Shown: positions 2,301-13,442 of the stretch, piece by piece
Numbering within the stretch: position 1 is the stretch's first letter
Layout of the letters: each line of letters starts with the position of its first letter
Assembly: GCF_900199515.1 (NCBI RefSeq)
Contig: NZ_LT963434.1
Coordinates: 2,042,180-2,074,179, forward strand
DNA length: 32,000 bases
Direction of reading: 5' to 3'
From: Massilicoli timonensis
Lineage (GTDB): Bacteria; Bacillota_I; Bacilli_A; Erysipelotrichales; Erysipelotrichaceae
Notes under the pieces: generated by a model
The model's input: the letters and a program-made list of their open reading frames with translations, nothing else
Databases searched by the model: none
Told to the model about the DNA's origin: nothing
Program-made: the position numbers and the translations under genes

Positions 2301-3680
2301 ATGGAAAGAGTGTTAGCATGGAATACATATGATGAAGCGAAAAAACAGGAAGTGTTTGCTTTTAGTGAGGACTATAAGCGCTTTATCTCTGTTTGTAAAA
2401 CAGAACGGGAATGTGTAGCGGAAACGATCCGCATGGCAGAAGCGAAAGGGTATCGCAATTTAGATACGCTTGTGGCATCTAATACGCCGTTAAAGCCGGG
2501 CGATAAAGTATATGCCAACAATATGGGAAAGACGATCGCCTTGTTTGTGATCGGCAGTGAACCGTTGGAAGCGGGCATGAAGATCTTAGGGGCACATGTG
2601 GATTCTCCGCGTCTTGACATCAAACAGAATCCACTGTATGAAGATCATGATCTGGCTTTGCTTGATACACATTACTATGGCGGTGTGAAAAAATACCAGT
2701 GGGTAACGCTGCCGTTAGCGCTGCATGGCGTTGTGGTGTTAAAGGATGGAACTAAGGTAGAAGTTGTCATTGGAGAAAAAGAGGAAGATCCGGTAGTGGG
2801 GGTCAGTGATTTATTGATCCATCTTTCAGCCGATCAGTTGAAGAAAAGCGGCAGTGAAGTAGTAGAAGGTGAAGATCTGAATATCTTGGTCGGTTCTATG
2901 CCTTTAGATAAAGAGGGCAGCGATCAGGTCAAAGCGATGGTTTTGGATATTTTGCGGAAAGAGTATGGCTTTGCGGAAGAAGATTTTTTATCAGCGGAAT
3001 TAGAGGTGGTTCCGGCAGGAAAGGCAAGAGATTATGGCATTGATCGTTCTATGATCATGGGCTATGGACATGATGATCGGGTTTGTGCCTATACTTCGTT
3101 AATGGCGATGCTGGAAGTGGAAACCTGTGATAAGACATGTGTGTGTCTGTTAGTGGATAAAGAGGAAGTCGGCAGCATCGGCGCCACCGGCATGCAGAGC
3201 AAGTTTTTTGAAAACAGTGTTGCGGAAGTGATGAACCTTTGCGGCAATTACAGTGAACTGGGCGTGCGGCGCGCCTTAAAGAATTCTAAGATGCTTTCCA
3301 GTGATGTGAGCGCTGCCTATGATCCTAACTATGCCAGTGTCAATGAAATGAAGAATACGGCATTTTTCGGAAAAGGCATCGTTTTCAATAAATATACCGG
3401 TTCGAGAGGAAAAGGCGGCTGTAATGACGCCAATGCGGAATTTATCGCGGAACTGCGTCAGATCATGGAAAAGGAAGGCGTTGTATTCCAGACAGCTGAG
3501 CTTGGAAAAGTAGACCAGGGCGGCGGTGGAACGATCGCTTACATTCTGGCACAGTACAATATGGAAGTGATCGACTGCGGGGTAGCGGTACAAAATATGC
3601 ACGCGCCTTGGGAAGTTGTTTCCAAAGCTGATGTTTATGAAACGAAACAAGGATATGTGGCATTCTTAAAACATGCGTAA
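2301..3680 (+). CDS. M18-family aminopeptidase
   Basis: 459 aa. GAHVDSPRLDIKQNPL, YGHDDRVC and LVDKEEVGS motifs are typical of M18 aminopeptidases. AAGGAAGG SD. Confidence 0.85.
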   Translation: MERVLAWNTYDEAKKQEVFAFSEDYKRFISVCKTERECVAETIRMAEAKGYRNLDTLVASNTPLKPGDKVYANNMGKTIALFVIGSEPLEAGMKILGAHVDSPRLDIKQNPLYEDHDLALLDTHYYGGVKKYQWVTLPLALHGVVVLKDGTKVEVVIGEKEEDPVVGVSDLLIHLSADQLKKSGSEVVEGEDLNILVGSMPLDKEGSDQVKAMVLDILRKEYGFAEEDFLSAELEVVPAGKARDYGIDRSMIMGYGHDDRVCAYTSLMAMLEVETCDKTCVCLLVDKEEVGSIGATGMQSKFFENSVAEVMNLCGNYSELGVRRALKNSKMLSSDVSAAYDPNYASVNEMKNTAFFGKGIVFNKYTGSRGKGGCNDANAEFIAELRQIMEKEGVVFQTAELGKVDQGGGGTIAYILAQYNMEVIDCGVAVQNMHAPWEVVSKADVYETKQGYVAFLKHA

Positions 3681-3691
3681 GAGGAAAGGCG

Positions 3692-3722
3692 CTGATCGCA
3701 AACGGTCAGGCTTTTTCTTTTT
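3692..3722 (+). terminator. rho-independent terminator
   Basis: 7-bp stem CTGATCG/CGGTCAG (one G-U) with loop CAAA, followed by GCTTTTTCTTTTT. Confidence 0.6.
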
Positions 3723-3822
3723 GTAATCGTGATCTTTAAGCACATGGCACGATCAAAATGCAAGCAGGAGTGATGATAAGCCCGCTATGCGCTGCGCCAA
3801 TAAAATAGGGGGCGATCTTTCT

Positions 3823-3881: not shown

Positions 3882-4820
3882 ATGCGAAAAATCAAAATAC
3901 AGGAAATCGATGGTTTTTTGATCGGGCAGGAACAAAATGAGAAGGCCGGAACCGGATGTACGGCGATCATTTGTGAAAAAGGCGCGGTAGCCGGTGTCGA
4001 TGTGCGCGGCGGTGCACCGGCAACGCGGGAAACGGATTTATTAAATCCATGCAATACAGTGGAACAGATTCACTGTGTGATGTTAAGCGGCGGCAGTGCG
4101 TTTGGCTTAGATGCGGCAAGCGGTGCCATGCGCTATTTAGAAGAAAAAGGCATTGGCTTTGATATGGGAACCGTTAAAGTGCCGATCGTCTGCGGTGCGT
4201 CATTATTTGATCTGCATATCGGAGATCCGCATATCAGACCGAATCAGGAAATGGGTTATGCGGCCTGTACCAAAACAGATCAGCTGTTTCAGGAAGGGAA
4301 TTACGGCGCCGGATGCGGCTGTTCTATCGGCAAAACGCTGGGAGCTGCTCATGCGATGAAAAGCGGGATCGGCGCTTATGCCATGCAGTTTGGTGATGTG
4401 CAGATCGGTGCAGTAGTAGCGGTCAATGCCTGCGGTGATATTTATGACTATGAAAATCATGAAATCATCGGTGCAGCACAAAAGGAAGGTGTTTTCTATC
4501 CGGCTGAACAGTTATTGATGCAGAAGATGGAAATGCCTATGGGCAATACGACGATCGGCTGTGTGATGACCAATGCCAAGCTTACCAAAGCACAGGCGAA
4601 TAAACTAGCCGCAATGGCACATGACGGCTATGCACATGCGATCACCCCGACACATACGATGTCTGATGGAGATACGATCTTTGCAATGGCAAGCGGAACG
4701 GCATCATGTGATTTCAATCTGCTTGGAGCACTTGCGGTAAAATGTGTGGAACAAGCAGTCATAAACGGATTCAAACAGGCGAAAAGCGCCTATGGACTGC
4801 CTGCTTATCAAAAGAAATAA
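3882..4820 (+). CDS. P1/S58 (DmpA-type) Ntn-hydrolase aminopeptidase
   Basis: GTGCTAI, VRGGAPATRETDLL, LSGGSAFGLDAA and GNTTIGCVMTNA (self-cleavage site context) motifs. The real start is probably ATG 3882, not the TTG at 3840 in the track. Confidence 0.8.
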   Translation: MRKIKIQEIDGFLIGQEQNEKAGTGCTAIICEKGAVAGVDVRGGAPATRETDLLNPCNTVEQIHCVMLSGGSAFGLDAASGAMRYLEEKGIGFDMGTVKVPIVCGASLFDLHIGDPHIRPNQEMGYAACTKTDQLFQEGNYGAGCGCSIGKTLGAAHAMKSGIGAYAMQFGDVQIGAVVAVNACGDIYDYENHEIIGAAQKEGVFYPAEQLLMQKMEMPMGNTTIGCVMTNAKLTKAQANKLAAMAHDGYAHAITPTHTMSDGDTIFAMASGTASCDFNLLGALAVKCVEQAVINGFKQAKSAYGLPAYQKK

Positions 4821-4835
4821 AATACAAAATCAGGG

Positions 4836-4870
4836 AAGAACAGCGGATGGGAAGATCGGCTGTTCTTTTT
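4836..4870 (+). terminator. rho-independent terminator
   Basis: 9-bp stem AAGAACAGC/GCTGTTCTT followed by a T-run. Confidence 0.75.
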
Positions 4871-4949
4871 AGGAGAAAATAGCGGAAGAAGGGAATCAAA
4901 ATACCTTTCCGTACAGTCATTGCATACGTGAAATTTAAGAAAATAAAGA

Positions 4950-4978
4950 TTGAAAACAACAATAATGTTTGTTATAAT
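4950..4978 (+). promoter_or_regulatory. promoter TTGAAA-17-TATAAT for tRNA-Arg
   Basis: TTGAAA 4950-4955, 17-nt spacer, TATAAT 4973-4978, 20 nt before the tRNA 5' end. Confidence 0.65.
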
Positions 4979-4998
4979 GGTGTGGCAGTAAAAGAAAG

Positions 4999-5075
4999 GT
5001 CCACGTAGCTCAGTTGGATAGAGCATGCGCCTTCTAAGCGCACGGTCGGGGGTTCGAATCCCTCCGTGGACGCCA
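4999..5075 (+). tRNA. tRNA-Arg (anticodon TCT)
   Basis: Hand-folded cloverleaf: acceptor GTCCACG/CGTGGAC, D arm GCTC..GAGC, anticodon stem TGCGC/GCGCA with loop CTTCTAA, T arm GGGGG-TTCGAAT-CCCTC, encoded CCA. Confidence 0.95.
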
Positions 5076-7107: not shown

Positions 7108-7191
7108 ATTAGTATTGTCATAGCAGATACATACGATAAGTGTGTTTGTTTACAAATAAATAGAGATAATCGTTAGCGGTTACAGTAAATG

Positions 7192-7220
7192 TAGATAAAT
7201 ATGGGAAAATATGGTATAGT
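7192..7220 (+). promoter_or_regulatory. promoter TAGATA-17-TATAGT (TGg extended -10)
   Basis: TAGATA 7192-7197, 17-nt spacer, TGgTATAGT 7212-7220, upstream of the strong SD GAAGGAGG 7263-7270. Confidence 0.5.
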
Positions 7221-7274
7221 GTAAACAAGCAAAGATAGCGTCTGTAAAAGGAAACAGACGAGAAGGAGGAAAAG

Positions 7275-9756
7275 ATGAAAAAGAAAGTATCGTTGCTTTT
7301 GGCAAGTCTATGCCTGATGCTAGGCATGGCAGTAAAACCGAACATGATTTTTGCCCAGGGGGGGGGGTACTGTAAATCAGTACTCTGAAACTGAGATTGG
7401 CGGATTAACGCTGGATGATTGGGATTGGAGACCTGGACCAAATGGGATCTCATTAAAAAAATATAAAGGGAATGCCGTAAATGTTGTCATTCCATCAGAG
7501 TTTGAAGAAAGACCAGGTGTATCAGTAGAGATTGCAACTTTTGATGGAATGTTTGATAATCTTGAGAAAGAAAATCCAACAGCAGATATAGACGGTTATG
7601 ACCACTATAATACATTAGTATCATTAAAAATAGGAACGACTAGCCAGAAAGTAGCACTTGGAACAGAATCCCTTCGAGGTGCATTTTGTCCAATTAAATA
7701 TGATGGTCTTTTTGATGTGCTGGAAACAATAGATTTGAGTGGTTTGGATACAAGTGGTGTTACAGATATGTCTAATATGTTTATGTCTTGTATTTCACTT
7801 AAAGAAATAAAAGGCTTAGAAACGCTAGACACAAGTAAAGTCGAAACTATGAATGCAATGTTTTGGGATTGCCCTTTATTAAAAAATTTAGATTTGACCC
7901 ATTTCAATACAGAGAATGTAAAAGATATGAGTTATATGTTTATGGCTTGTCTCAACTTAGAAAGTTTGGATGTTAACAGTTTTGACACGAGTAAAGTTGA
8001 AAGAATGGACTATATGTTTACTATGTGCGAAAATCTAAAAAATATAGAAGGACTAAATCATTTTGATACAAGCAAAGTAGAGAATATGTATGGAATGTTT
8101 TCCGATTGTGAAAAAATCAATGTTTTTGATTTAAGCAGCTTTGACTTAAGTGGGTTCAAAACAAGTAACGCGGACAGAATGGCAGAAATATTTGACTGTG
8201 ATGATTTTATTGACGATCCGATTCCTACCATTATCATTACGGAAGATGAAAAACTAATCGAAAGATATAATGATCCTGACAGTATCAAAGGGAGAATCCC
8301 TTATTTTGGCAATGTTTCTTTTGATGCCAATGGCGGTGTATTTGCAGATGGAAGCACAAAGCAATTTACGGTTGTAAATGATGAAACCAATCACTTTATC
8401 TATGCAAATGAAACAGAGGTCGATCAAGCAAAAGCTGCTGTATCCGCAGTGCCGGGAACTGACATTCTGATGAATAACCCATCTACTAGTCTAAGCAAAG
8501 AGGGAAGCGTATTCAATGGCTGGTATTTAGATGAAGCATGTACGAAGCCATTTGATGAAGCAACAACGATCGACTTTACGACATTAGCGAACGGTACGCT
8601 GCACTTATATGCGGGATACAGTGAACCGCTTCAAGCAGTCGAACTGATCGCATATGAAGGAGGATCGGGAACCGACGCCAGCAATCATGGCGATGCCTTG
8701 CCGGAACCGCAATGGGAAGAAGGCTTGGAAAGCTATGCGATCAGCGTAGATGGAGAAGCATGGGATCTGGAAGAAGAGGGAGTGCCATTTGCATGGGAAT
8801 ATCGAAACAGCGAGGGAGAGAAGGTAGAGAGCGCAGCGAAAGCGGGAAGCTATGCACTGTATGCATTACCAAGAGTAGATGATAAAGAGATCCGATTAGA
8901 TGAACACATATTGAGTATACCGGAAGAAGGGATGGCAGTAGGGGAAGTAAAGGTAAGAGAAGTAAGCGATGAAAGTGCAGAGACACTGAGCAGTGAGATC
9001 TATAAGGGTGTATATGAAGAAGAAGGAGCATGCCAGATCAAAGAGGCACATGCACATGTAAAAGCAGGGACGCAGTTTTATAAGAACGGGAATACGATGT
9101 ATCCGGTAAATGAAGATGCGAAGATCGTGCTGTTATGGGATGAATTGATCGAAGAGGTATTGGGATCAGCAGAACGGATGGAAGCACTGCATGCAAAGGG
9201 AATGGAAGCAGTGAAAGGGATGGATGAAACGAAGGAAGTAAAAAGAGAGTTTCGGTATTTGGATCTGGTCGATCAAAATGACGGGAACTTATGGGTAGGA
9301 ACGGAAAAGGAAACGGTAAGCGTATATTATCCATATCCAGAAGGAAGCGAAGAAGGGGATCGGTTTGCGGTCGTGTATTATGAGGGATTGACAAGAGATT
9401 ACACGATGCAGATGAGCGAAGAGGCTTTGGATGAAGAGATCGCAAAGAGCAAGGCGAGAGAGATAGAAGTAAGAAAGACAGAGGGTGGATTGGAGTTTGA
9501 GGTAGGAAGCAAGGAGTTTGGGACATTTGAGGTGATGTGGCAGAAGGAAGAGAAACCGACAGAGCCGGAGGAGAAGCCGAATACACCAAATGAAGAGGAA
9601 AAGGGAGAAAGCAATATCGAGGAGATCAAGAAAGAGGAGAGCGAAGCAGTACATACAGGAGATGAAGTAAGCAAGGGAATGTATTATGTGCTGCTAGGGG
9701 GAAGTATGATCGTGTTCGCTGCAATGTTACGCAAGAACAGAAGAAGCGAACAGTAG
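7275..9756 (+). CDS. BspA-type (DUF285-like) leucine-rich-repeat surface protein, frameshifted at a G10 tract (signal-peptide ORF 7275-7388, body ORF 7351-9756)
   Basis: ATG 7275 encodes signal peptide MKKKVSLLLASLCLMLGMAVKPNMIFAQ. The body has six DTSxVxxMxxMFxxCxxL repeats, a Listeria-Bacteroides-type repeat (NVSFDANGG...GSVFNGWYLDEACTKPF), a Glu-rich region, and a C-terminal TM with basic tail. The two parts are in different frames and would be joined by removing one G. Confidence 0.8.
7358..7367 (+). repeat. homopolymeric G10 tract
   Basis: Counted directly: cccaGGGGGGGGGGtac. Confidence 0.95.
7729..8205 (+). repeat. six tandem LRR units of about 26 aa (protein-level repeat)
   Basis: The core (D/N/K)T(S/E)x(V/A)xxM recurs at body-ORF residues about 133, 160, 186, 212, 239 and 270. 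Confidence 0.8.
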
Positions 9757-9913: not shown

Positions 9914-11572
9914 CTATGATTGGAAATAGAAATCACTGAAATCATACTTGAATACGCGATACGCATATTTCTCTGCTTCATAGTGATATTCACGAATCAG
10001 ATTGCCTTCCTTGTCATATTCATTGAAGCAGTTGGATTTTCCGGAGCTGCTGATCAAGTGATCCTGATACCATTCACAGCTAGAAACGATGCTGGAATAA
10101 GGCAGTGCAACTTGATCCACCAAAGTATAAGTGCCGCTGTTTTCATCAACAAGGTATTGATAATAATAAGAGGCAGTTCCTTCTGTGTAAGTGCCGGCGC
10201 CGATAAATGCGCTCCAGTCCAGATCCTGTCTGGTCCTTGCATTGGTAAAGTTGTTATTGAACATATACAGGTAATACTGTCCTTCCGGTAAACTATCATC
10301 TGCTAAATAAGTGATGGTGTGCTGACCTGACTGTGAGATGAAGTCTGTACCTTTCGCATAGAGAAGCGTATGCGCATCATCATCGTTTTCCTGATATAAG
10401 GAAGCATCTGCTAAGAAATAGGAAATGCTTGGATTGTTTCGATAATCACTGATCTTGATAATGGTACTTAATTCACGAGAGCTGACGATCAGATCATCGC
10501 CCATAAAATCAAAGAAATTGAGATGTATCCAGTCTAATTCATCTCCGCCGTAGGTATTGCCTTCTTCCGGTGATACAGCTTTTGCATATAACTGCGGCAA
10601 TAGATCTTTCATATCAACAAGTTCTTTGACTTCATTCGTTTCCAGGTCTAACGAGATCATCACATCTTCGATGGTCATGTCATTGTCCTCATTTACCAAT
10701 ATGACGAGTTCATTATGTTCTTCATCATAGCGAAATTCATGGTGCTGTTTATAAGAACCGATAGAATAGAGATTGGTGATCTTGCCAAGTTGATTTACAG
10801 TCATAAAGCCATTTTTGCTATAACTGTATAACAGTTCATCACCGACTTGTTCGATGCGGTCGCTGCGATAATTCTTTAATGGCAGTTCACCGCGCAAGAC
10901 ACCGTCATTGTCATACAGGTATATATTGGAATTAAATGATTTATCTAATCCGAAAACCGCAAATAGGCCATCACTCAGTTCTTGTGCGGAATCACCGTTC
11001 TCGATGGCAAGCTGTGTATTGTTTTGAGTAGCACACTGCGGCATTTCAATCGTGTAAGTGTGGGTTGCAATCGTTTTTCCTTTATCGTCGCTGTAAGTGA
11101 GCGTTAAAGTGTTTTTCTCTCCATAGACAAAGCCAATGACCTGTGAAGCATACCCTTCTTCTATTGCGACAGTAACAGCAGTCTTGGAAAAATCTTGGAT
11201 CGTTTCATCTTCCACATGGATCTCATAAGAAAGAGTATAGGCTTCATCTCCGTGATAGGCTACTAGCAAGGAGGAGGTATTGGTGCCGAAAGGGTTGTAT
11301 AACAGCAGTGGAGAGGCCACCGTATATTCATCTAATGCTTCTGTGATTTTATCCTCTACGACACTTTGATAATTAAGCGAATAGATCGAATCCGCATCGG
11401 CATCTACCTCATAAACAGATTCCCCTAGTGTTTCAGAAGGAATGATGCGTGTGTGAAGGGAACGCCAAAAAGTCGTTTTTTGAATCTGATTGCTGGAAAA
11501 GCCATAGATGATCCCGCCGGCAACTGCCAGACATAGAATGCCAGCGATTACCCAGTGTTTTTTCTTTTTCAT
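9914..11572 (-). CDS. membrane-anchored arylsulfate sulfotransferase (ASST)-like beta-propeller protein
   Basis: N-terminal anchor MKKKKHWVIAGILCLAVAGGIIYGF. YKQHHEFRYDEEHNELVIL and DWIHLNFFDFMGDDLIVSSRELSTIIKI resemble remembered ASST motifs (HHE..., DWxHxN...SSR...IKI). Confidence 0.6.
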   Translation of the reverse strand: MKKKKHWVIAGILCLAVAGGIIYGFSSNQIQKTTFWRSLHTRIIPSETLGESVYEVDADADSIYSLNYQSVVEDKITEALDEYTVASPLLLYNPFGTNTSSLLVAYHGDEAYTLSYEIHVEDETIQDFSKTAVTVAIEEGYASQVIGFVYGEKNTLTLTYSDDKGKTIATHTYTIEMPQCATQNNTQLAIENGDSAQELSDGLFAVFGLDKSFNSNIYLYDNDGVLRGELPLKNYRSDRIEQVGDELLYSYSKNGFMTVNQLGKITNLYSIGSYKQHHEFRYDEEHNELVILVNEDNDMTIEDVMISLDLETNEVKELVDMKDLLPQLYAKAVSPEEGNTYGGDELDWIHLNFFDFMGDDLIVSSRELSTIIKISDYRNNPSISYFLADASLYQENDDDAHTLLYAKGTDFISQSGQHTITYLADDSLPEGQYYLYMFNNNFTNARTRQDLDWSAFIGAGTYTEGTASYYYQYLVDENSGTYTLVDQVALPYSSIVSSCEWYQDHLISSSGKSNCFNEYDKEGNLIREYHYEAEKYAYRVFKYDFSDFYFQS

Positions 11573-11829: not shown

Positions 11830-11903
11830 GCAGATGTAGTTTAATGGTAGAACACAACCTTGCCAAGGTTGATACGGGGGTTCGATTCCCCTCATCTGCT
11901 CCA
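11830..11903 (+). tRNA. tRNA-Gly (anticodon GCC)
   Basis: Hand-folded: acceptor GCAGATG/CATCTGC, anticodon stem CAACC/GGTTG with loop TTGCCAA, T arm GGGGG-TTCGATT-CCCCT, encoded CCA. Confidence 0.95.
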
Positions 11904-12321: not shown

Positions 12322-12861
12322 ATGATCGAAATAACATACTATCAATCACCGATTGGAGAACTGCTGCTGGCAGCGAAAAACGATAAGCTGATCGGTTTGT
12401 GGATAAAGGATCAAAAATATTATTTATCGAATGTTCAGGAAGAGCTGAAAGAGAGAAGCGATCATGCTCTTTTGAATCAAACAAAGGAATGGCTGGATCG
12501 ATATTTCAATGGCGAAAAGCCTTCGATAAAGGAGCTGGAGCTAGAGCCGATCGGGAGCGAGTTCAGAAAAAGGGTATGGGAAATCCTATGTGAGATCCCT
12601 TATGGCGAAGTCATGACTTATCATGACATAGCGAAGCGAATTGCAAAAGAAAAGGGAATCAAACGCATGTCTGCACAGGCAGTCGGCGGTGCAGTGGGAC
12701 ATAATCCGATCTCTATCATTATTCCCTGTCACAGAGTCGTAGGAAGCAATGGCAGTCTGATCGGATATGCAGGAGGCATCCAAAGAAAGAAATATTTGCT
12801 GGAACACGAAAAGGCAGATATGAGCAAGTTATTTGTACCGGTGAAAGGAACCGCAATCTAA
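12322..12861 (+). CDS. ogt: methylated-DNA--protein-cysteine S-methyltransferase, copy 1
   Basis: Active site IIPCHRVVGSNGSLIGYAGG, plus the N-terminal domain and helix-turn-wing segment YGEVMTYHDIA. Confidence 0.9.
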   Translation: MIEITYYQSPIGELLLAAKNDKLIGLWIKDQKYYLSNVQEELKERSDHALLNQTKEWLDRYFNGEKPSIKELELEPIGSEFRKRVWEILCEIPYGEVMTYHDIAKRIAKEKGIKRMSAQAVGGAVGHNPISIIIPCHRVVGSNGSLIGYAGGIQRKKYLLEHEKADMSKLFVPVKGTAI

Positions 12862-12908
12862 GCGATCTGTTTTTATGATCAGCAGATGAGCAAACAATGG
12901 AGGGAAGC

Positions 12909-13442
12909 ATGATGTATCGCAAACAATATCGATCTCCGCTTGGAATGATCACCTTAAACGCAGACGGAGAAAATCTGACAGCAGTCTGTTTTGAAGACGG
13001 AAAAGATTATGGAAGGTATATACAGGATGGGGAAGAAAGGGATCTGCCGATATTCGATGAGGCAATCCAATGGCTGGATCAATACTTTCAAGGGAAAGAT
13101 CCGGGTCCGATCCCCCGATATAAGCGAAATGATATGACGCCGTTCAGACAGGAAGTAATTGATGAACTGTTAAAAATTCCCTATGGGCAAACAGTTACAT
13201 ACCGTGATCTGGCAAAAGCGATCTGCGCAAAAAGAGGATGGAAAAGAATGTCGGCGCAGGCTGTCGGCGGTGCGGTCGGATGGAATCCGATTTGTATCAT
13301 GATCCCCTGTCACAGAGTCGTAGGAAGCAATGGCAGTCTGATTGGATATGGGGGAGGCATCCATAATAAGTTAAAACTTCTTGCATTAGAAGGCGTGGAT
13401 ACAAACAGTTATACGATACCTAAGAAAGGAACCGCTTTATAA
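12909..13442 (+). CDS. ogt: methylated-DNA--protein-cysteine S-methyltransferase, copy 2
   Basis: Active site MIPCHRVVGSNGSLIGYGGG. GGAGGGA SD at 12899-12905 favours ATG 12909 or 12912 over 12897. Confidence 0.9.
   Translation: MMYRKQYRSPLGMITLNADGENLTAVCFEDGKDYGRYIQDGEERDLPIFDEAIQWLDQYFQGKDPGPIPRYKRNDMTPFRQEVIDELLKIPYGQTVTYRDLAKAICAKRGWKRMSAQAVGGAVGWNPICIMIPCHRVVGSNGSLIGYGGGIHNKLKLLALEGVDTNSYTIPKKGTAL

Follow-up and report, generated by a model that had tools for sequence, protein, structure and literature searches.

We analysed a 32,000-nucleotide (nt) stretch of the genome of Massilicoli timonensis (assembly GCF_900199515.1, contig NZ_LT963434.1, positions 2,042,180 to 2,074,179), hereafter the window, in which a run of ten guanines (G10) lies between a short open reading frame (ORF) with the features of a signal peptide and the long body of a surface protein that is encoded in a different frame. 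The features that meet at this junction, numbered from the first letter of the window, are as follows.

7262-7269, forward strand: Shine-Dalgarno sequence GAAGGAGG, with a 5-nt spacer to ATG 7275; kept in all aligned loci.
7275-7388, forward strand: ORF of 37 codons, MKKKVSLLLASLCLMLGMAVKPNMIFAQGGGYCKSVL, from ATG 7275-7277 to TGA 7386-7388; read directly.
7275-7357, forward strand: signal-peptide coding region in frame 0, composed of MKKK, VSLLLASLCLMLGMAV and KPNMIFA/Q; read by eye.
7358-7367, forward strand: poly-G tract, exactly G10, out of frame and so OFF; read directly.
7386-7388, forward strand: stop codon (TGA) that is reached in the signal-peptide frame with a G10 or G7 tract.
7369-9756, forward strand: body of the surface protein, 795 codons and a stop, in the +1 frame relative to ATG 7275.

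A sequence-only reading of the window had placed G10 at 7358-7367, between the signal-peptide ORF and a body in the +1 frame, and the letters confirm this. The ORF that is called mechanically here starts at a TTG, spans 801 codons (7351-9756) and lies in the +1 frame relative to ATG 7275. Translation of an edited tract from which one G had been deleted gave a fusion of 826 amino acids (aa) reading ...IFAQGGGTVNQYSETE..., and the addition of two Gs likewise fused the signal-peptide and body frames, as had been predicted for G9 and G12. The Shine-Dalgarno sequence reported ahead of ATG 7275 is present, at 7262-7269 rather than at 7263-7270, and the body was correctly described as having none of its own, there being none before TTG 7351. 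We rejected TTG 7351 as the true start, given that it has no Shine-Dalgarno sequence and that its product would lack an export signal yet carry a putative wall-sorting signal.

By eye, the features of a signal peptide (a basic n-region, a hydrophobic core and small residues at -3 and -1) are present only in the frame of ATG 7275, and the -3/-1 rule would place cleavage after IFA. A lipoprotein was considered and rejected, because the residues preceding Cys13 (A-S-L-C) are unlike a lipobox. At G9 or G12 the tract encodes a linker of three or four glycines at the predicted mature N-terminus; it thus appears to be placed where extra glycines would be harmless, at the predicted cleavage site IFA/QGGG. 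An example of the tract in a form locked at G9 is GGAGGTGGC. The tract is an outlier: it is the sole G or C run above 5 in the window, the longest other run being 5. The G9 pattern, expected 0.02 times in dinucleotide-preserving shuffles, was seen twice, both times inside the tract, and of the glycine codons GGG is the one that the window's genes use least (12.5%).

We then read the DNA of 15 related loci (given here as L numbers) from metagenome assemblies in the European Nucleotide Archive and at the Joint Genome Institute. Among the 16 sequences obtained with the window, the tract was G10 in nine, G7 in two, G9 in two, and G7TT, G8 and G12 in one each. In an alignment of 12 loci, no position varies in the 33 nt before the tract or in the 23 nt that follow it, and the coding 5' end has no indel other than the tract. 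Identity among these loci starts near TTACAGTAAA and extends through the signal peptide and the tract; the near-identical block runs from about 95 nt 5' of the ATG through about the first 25 codons of the body, despite unrelated flanks. At least six paralogous loci are headed by the same cassette of promoter, 5' untranslated region (5'UTR), signal peptide and poly-G.

Locus A, flanked by hydrogenase-like and arylsulfotransferase genes: the window, L002, L007 and L009.
Locus B, flanked by pheST and a metallophosphatase gene: L001, L004 and L017.
Locus C, flanked by PTS-BglG and Fic genes: L003, L005 and L010.
Locus D, flanked by a sigma factor gene and RarA: L018, L019 and L020.
Locus E: L008.
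Locus F, flanked by glycogen phosphorylase and PHP genes: L021.

Locus A was found in four states in four assemblies: G10 in the window, G9 and therefore ON in L009, G7TT in L002 and G7 in L007. In-frame alleles occur naturally, as G9 in L009 and L021 and as G12 in L010, and their products begin MKKKVSLLLASLCLMLGM...FAQGGG(G)TVNQ; that of L009 is 818 aa long and includes the signal peptide. L009 (ON) and L002 (G7TT, OFF) are 99.78% identical over 12.4 kb, with no differences in the upstream 4.97 kb and with differences clustered in the gene and its 5' cassette. The diverged paralogue L021 retains a pure G run despite changes in its signal-peptide DNA and promoter. A pattern scan for the tract flanks in a collection of genome contigs gave no matches, the source species being apparently absent there, and a search of the same collection with the conserved C-terminal half returned only unrelated Flg_new-repeat proteins from other taxa.

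Upstream of the start codon the shared block contains the following features.

7180-7274, forward strand: the portion of the 5' cassette ahead of the start codon, which is conserved and includes the promoter-like site, the 5'UTR and the Shine-Dalgarno sequence, from the 12-locus alignment.
7192-7220, forward strand: promoter-like site, TAGATA, a 17-nt spacer and TATAGT, with TG before it (extended -10), from a consensus scan.
7239-7260, forward strand: 5'UTR hairpin CGTCTGT-AAAAGGAA-ACAGACG, just 5' of the Shine-Dalgarno sequence, from folding.

In 5' to 3' order the block thus runs from the promoter-like TAGATA-17-TGgTATAGT through the hairpin, the Shine-Dalgarno sequence, the signal-peptide codons and the G tract into the first codons of the body. 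The promoter-like site at 7192-7220 falls inside the part conserved among paralogues and may well act as a promoter. The fold of 7221-7300 has an energy of -14.2 kcal/mol (z = -3.3; none of 200 shuffles was as stable), and the stem of the hairpin is kept in the diverged L021 (3970-3990) by a two-sided change, CGTTTGT...ACAAACG. The A-run in its loop differs between loci. Control of mRNA stability or of translation are possible roles for this hairpin.

To these DNA sequences we added a census of proteins, taken from the listings of 15 family clusters in a collection of 15 billion proteins, with tract length inferred from the N-terminus. The 97 distinct proteins comprised 56 with G10, 26 with G11, six with G8 and one with G7, all OFF, and four with G9 and four with G12, all ON. 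ON and OFF forms occurred together inside five separate 90%-identity clusters, and the ON forms belong to clusters represented by an OFF form. Gene calls on 46 contigs include the very 37-aa G10 peptide found in the window, and those on 33 contigs its 36-aa G7 version. Modal length varies by paralogue: the L021-type cluster is mostly G11, with G9 or G12 on about one-fifth of its contigs by hand count. The 2.09-Mb source contig itself carries further paralogues with G11 (P0165 and P0193, inferred from their N-termini only) beside the G10 of the window, so tract lengths differ within one genome. None of the top 14 protein matches had a fused signal peptide; several start MPRGGGTVNQYSE, which is what the corresponding TTG yields in the +1 frame and hence implies G10, and one starts in the third frame. 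A search with the 137-aa repaired N-terminus found four fragments only. Between them, DNA and census supplied the comparison of orthologous tracts that the sequence-only reading had proposed, with G7, G8, G9, G10, G11 and G12 all found at the same position.

The body is 100% identical to P0001, which NCBI names 'BspA family leucine-rich repeat surface protein [Massilicoli timonensis]' and annotates as 735 aa, beginning at the body's first in-frame ATG and without a signal peptide. Four regions of the body could be assigned.

7732-8130, forward strand: DUF285/PARCEL repeats of 26 residues, leucine-rich-repeat-like (PF03382, TIGR02167).
8473-8574, forward strand: Listeria-Bacteroides repeat (Flg_new; PF09479), marginal at 27.9 bits against a cut-off of 27.
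9544-9603, forward strand: PEEKP(T/S)E heptad repeats in 21-nt units, ahead of the sorting signal; alleles differ in copy number without loss of frame.
9646-9756, forward strand: putative C-terminal sorting signal, AVHTGDE, hydrophobic MYYVLLGGSMIVFAAML, basic RKNRRSEQ and the stop, from translation.

The repaired protein matched PF03382 with E = 4e-30 and 104.3 bits (cut-off 25), and TIGR02167 with E = 3e-30, 103.3 bits (cut-off 30) and five repeats. The earlier identification of a BspA-type leucine-rich repeat surface protein therefore stands as to a surface protein, of the DUF285/PARCEL-repeat kind; the BspA-type Pfam family LRR_5 (PF13306) scored 21.5 bits, below its cut-off of 27.7, and BspA is NCBI's label. 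This repeat region is the hypervariable part of the family, where column identity among paralogues falls to 0.5-0.65. In the AlphaFold model of the body the predicted local distance difference test score is about 90 for residues 10-260, with a mean of 50, and the model is confident only to about residue 300; the confident part comprises the N-terminal domain and the repeat solenoid, and the C-terminal half has neither a confident fold nor a PDB match. A fold search of PDB gave only weak leucine-rich repeat matches (TLR9 and BACCAC_03700, E > 0.01), and a sequence search of PDB gave nothing significant. The heptads number two in the window and up to six in other alleles, and the lengths of allelic proteins step by 7 aa (801/815/822/829; 786/793/807; 945/959/966), so that the region resembles a stalk of variable length that stays in frame.

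At the C-terminus, the match to the NCBIfam LPXTG surface-protein subfamily was weak (E = 1.9e-4, 21.9 bits, below the cut-off of 47). A family fragment, P0255, is named 'LPXTG cell wall anchor domain protein' in UniRef, and the surface protein adjoining paralogue D in L018 ends in APNTGD, a transmembrane segment (TM) and KKKLN, which suggests a species-specific sorting motif, x(N/H)TGD. By these matches the protein is a DUF285/PARCEL-repeat surface protein with a predicted LPXTG-like C-terminal sorting signal. Its ON product would be anchored by sortase and may serve as an adhesin or antigen.

We interpret the G10 run as the switch of a simple-sequence-repeat contingency locus that is OFF in this assembly, with a probability of roughly 0.8. 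The slipped-strand ON/OFF switch that the sequence-only reading had put forward, likewise as OFF here, has in this way gained support from relatives with tracts of G7 to G12, from invariant flanks and from natural in-frame alleles; the support is at the level of comparison between strains. In such a switch, transcription would begin at the conserved promoter-like site and translation at ATG 7275, and the ribosome would make a Sec signal peptide before reading the G tract. With G9 or G12 it would pass through a linker of three or four glycines and on into the 795-codon body, and this ON product would be exported and probably sortase-anchored as a PARCEL/DUF285-repeat surface protein. With G10 or G7, or with G11 or G8, the frame would be lost and translation would stop after 32-37 codons; the body, which has no Shine-Dalgarno sequence, start codon or export signal of its own, would not be exported in this OFF state. 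Slipped-strand mispairing during replication would add or remove Gs and so toggle each copy independently.

Several observations weigh against a switch of this kind. ON alleles are rare, at 8 of 97 distinct proteins (8%) and about 6% of hand-counted contigs, whereas unbiased slippage would give one-third, and G10 is strongly modal across paralogues, which could hint that G10 itself is maintained. The excess of OFF forms needs an added assumption, either that ON is counter-selected as a majority allele or that mutation is biased; the first of these, acting in the gut, seems plausible. The sequences counted are non-independent, through shared ancestry and gene conversion between paralogues, and some of the variation by one G in Illumina metagenome assemblies could be homopolymer error, the difficulty of Illumina sequencing at G tracts having been described (PMC9187656). 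High-rate slippage within a clone is something we infer from consensus assemblies only, expression, export and wall anchoring of the ON product are predictions, and the sorting motif is AV(H/N)TG(D) and not canonical LPXTG.

The same predominance of G10 in all paralogues, with in-frame lengths in only 8 of 97 proteins, would also be expected if the out-of-frame G10 and G11 were the working forms and full-length protein were made constitutively at a low level by recoding, with either RNA polymerase slipping on the G run or the ribosome shifting frame on GGG (+1 at G10, -1 at G11). To judge from the sequence, tRNA-Gly could re-pair perfectly after a one-base shift within the run, and slippage-prone homopolymers are a known recoding device according to a review cited in PMC9187656. 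We nevertheless regard recoding as improbable. G10/G7 and G11/G8 are both common and would require opposite shifts, and in-frame G9 and G12 alleles occur naturally in five paralogue clusters. The RNA that follows the tract does not fold into a significant structure (z = -1.3), the shift site has no slow codon or stop, and in Bifidobacterium breve expression followed the length of the G tract in the DNA (PMC9187656).

Hardly more credible, and if anything slightly less so, is a plain pseudogene, that is, an intact gene broken by a +1 G insertion and now decaying, in which the tract has no regulatory role. The assembly is indeed out of frame, the NCBI product is only a truncated 735 aa, and the family does include dead members. 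The allele of L017 at the pheST locus (4523-5001, cluster P0007) combines G7 with an in-frame TGA 101 codons past the tract, which replaces an Arg/Gln of the paralogues (...GTDSLY-stop-AFYEG); alleles of this type are widespread, with 13 cluster members and the 36-aa G7 leader found on 33 contigs. In L006 (about 3600-3750, minus strand) a cassette remnant is 5'-truncated, without promoter, Shine-Dalgarno sequence or ATG, and has a 1-nt insertion in the signal-peptide region, a G8 tract and a body broken after 42 codons. As judged from these two sequences, genuine decay in the family differs in appearance from the G10 loci, all nine of which have a body ORF that is open to its normal stop (457-953 codons). 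For the body, pairwise ratios of non-synonymous to synonymous substitution lie between 0.04 and 0.15 over the C-terminal half and between 0.2 and 0.5 over the N-terminal and repeat part; the body is thus under purifying selection, which argues against a plain pseudogene. The signal-peptide frame is conserved as well, with variable sites that are synonymous leucines (CTA/CTG, CTA/TTA/CTG/TTG) or conservative changes (A/T, V/I/A) in frame 0. Furthermore, a close ON allele exists at the same locus (L009), and a pure G run is held in at least six paralogues although GGG is the rarest glycine codon.

Least probable of all is a sequencing or assembly artefact that hides a true G9 and an ordinary intact gene: every platform is prone to error at homopolymers of this length and a RefSeq tract length discordant with those measured in culture has been found before (PMC9187656), but eight further independent assemblies, made by different projects with different assemblers, likewise have G10 at the homologous site, which makes a one-off assembly error unlikely, its exact 37-aa product is on 46 contigs, and a systematic error would neither spread lengths from G7 to G12 nor deplete G9 specifically.

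Apart from tract length, the repeat domain also varies among the loci. The N-terminal and repeat allele of L001 (6001-8448, pheST locus) differs at 1 of 370 codons from that of L010 (5001-7484, PTS-Fic locus), and the C-terminal halves differ by 16 changes; the two come from different strains and different chromosomal loci. Conversely, a single locus may carry different repeat-domain alleles in different strains, as in the window against L002 and L009, or in L003 against L010. This suggests that recombination or gene conversion moves the variable cassette between loci. The family, whose members share the cassette and a conserved C-terminal half and vary in the repeat domain, resembles a combinatorial surface-variation system, as far as its sequences allow one to say.

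Outside the window, next to paralogue D, a second poly-G, a G11, lies within the spacer that separates a perfect TTGACA from TACAAT (1254-1284 in L018 and L019). As assembled, this spacer measures 19 nt; a tract of G9 would bring it to the optimal 17. Downstream is a 572-aa protein with the signal peptide MKRKNVVFTTLTSFALAAAMFSSTVPVHA and the C-terminal APNTGD-TM-KKKLN. The arrangement looks like promoter-spacer phase variation of a second surface protein, and with a G11 promoter tract beside paralogue D, control of surface proteins by poly-G would recur in the species.

The neighbours of the gene in the window are housekeeping genes, with a [FeFe]-hydrogenase-like gene upstream and a convergent arylsulfotransferase gene downstream, and there is no sortase gene within the window. 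The segment of hydrogenase-like, surface-protein and arylsulfotransferase genes is flanked by tRNA-Arg(TCT) at 4999-5075 and tRNA-Gly(GCC) at 11830-11903; it shows no sign of recent insertion, and the same arrangement is found in L002 and L009. Of the 27 differences between L009 and L002, 11 lie at L009 11079-12053, ten of them within 11079-11427. This cluster sits just downstream of two tandem O6-methylguanine-DNA-methyltransferase-like genes (window 12322-13442) that share a 122-nt stretch with 85% identity, and gene conversion between these two copies is a possibility.

Homopolymer phase variation is textbook material for mucosal pathogens and has been documented in few gut commensals. In Neisseria, pilC has a poly-G in its signal-peptide coding region and opa has CTCTT repeats in its leader peptide; the opa genes form a multigene family in which each copy switches on its own and most copies are OFF. 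The Massilicoli gene is similar in having its repeat in the export-signal coding region of a putative adhesin gene. Neisseria are Gram-negative pathogens, however, the proteins are unrelated and the opa repeat is pentameric, whereas in Massilicoli the tract is at the predicted junction between signal peptide and mature protein and would encode a harmless glycine linker.

The nearest precedent in design is that of the pilus genes bbr_0113 and bbr_1889 of B. breve UCC2003, which are switched by replication slippage in a G tract (PMC9187656). Their pilin precursors have the Sec signal and the LPXTG motif on two ORFs parted by that tract, and the length of the tract, which changes in vivo, controls pilus production (PMC9187656). 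Both bacteria are Gram-positive gut commensals, and in both a G tract (about G11-12 in B. breve) parts a Sec-signal ORF from an ORF with a cell-wall sorting motif, a putative one in Massilicoli, the downstream ORF lacks a Shine-Dalgarno sequence and signal peptide of its own, and the deposited sequence has the two ORFs out of frame with each other. Whether the fusion protein is made depends on tract length, switching having been measured in B. breve and being deduced here from differences between strains. Yet B. breve belongs to the Actinomycetota, its tracts lie in pilin operons where the switch is polar on downstream pilus genes, and it has one or two such loci per genome, whereas the present case concerns a member of the Erysipelotrichaceae and a monocistronic PARCEL-repeat gene, with at least six paralogous loci under one 5' cassette.

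Erysipelotrichia are commonly seen as close walled relatives of the Mollicutes. In that group, the PARCEL/DUF285 lipoproteins MAG1330 and MAG3260 of Mycoplasma agalactiae have an N-terminal poly-G, and PARCEL ORFs of M. capricolum have contingency tracts; the Mycoplasma PARCEL poly-G was a curation remark without population data (PMC2996958). The repeat family, PF03382/TIGR02167, is the same as ours, but those are lipoproteins of wall-less bacteria, unlike the protein described here, which has a type-I-like signal peptide without a lipobox and a putative wall-sorting signal at its C-terminus. Candidatus Mycoplasma girerdii has at least 28 copies of BspA-like leucine-rich repeat surface proteins, eight of them with length-variable simple repeats, and there the consensus is mostly OFF, ON variants appearing at low frequency in metagenomic reads (PMC5476646). 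Our family is likewise large and paralogous, and its OFF-dominated census agrees; the repeats of Ca. M. girerdii, by contrast, are dinucleotides (e.g. CA), and no shared 5' cassette has been described for them. Given these close precedents in Bifidobacterium (PMC9187656) and in Mollicutes (PMC2996958, PMC5476646), the rarity that the sequence-only reading had ascribed to such loci in gut Firmicutes was overstated.

Our literature searches found no report of phase variation in Massilicoli or Erysipelotrichaceae. The mechanism itself is already known; what the present family would add is a 5' cassette common to at least six loci and an apparent exchange of the variable repeat domain. A wider joint reading, in which M. 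timonensis has a genome-wide poly-G phasome for wall-anchored surface proteins, is tentative, and we would sooner bet against it than for it as a whole. It would consist of at least six cassette genes that toggle independently, repeat domains that are swapped and a poly-G in a promoter spacer, and the roughly five-fold depletion of in-frame forms in gut metagenome consensus would reflect counter-selection in vivo by immunoglobulin A (IgA) or phage. If true, it would be a commensal-Firmicute counterpart of Neisseria opa or of the Campylobacter phasome that is readable from public metagenomes.

The finding also bears on how such genes are annotated. Pipelines split or truncate them, with NCBI products of 735 aa, 604 aa and 853 aa that begin at internal Met codons, and, depending on tract length, gene calls in metagenomes begin at TTG 7351 or at a third-frame ATG, so that members of the family look like unrelated N-terminal variants in protein databases. 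For the organism, it suggests that a cultured human gut Firmicute carries a repertoire of surface proteins that is encoded in several copies and can probably be switched. Strain-level metagenomics can read which of the copies are ON and which are OFF, and the excess of OFF alleles offers a testable handle on selection by the host (IgA) or by phage on a commensal.

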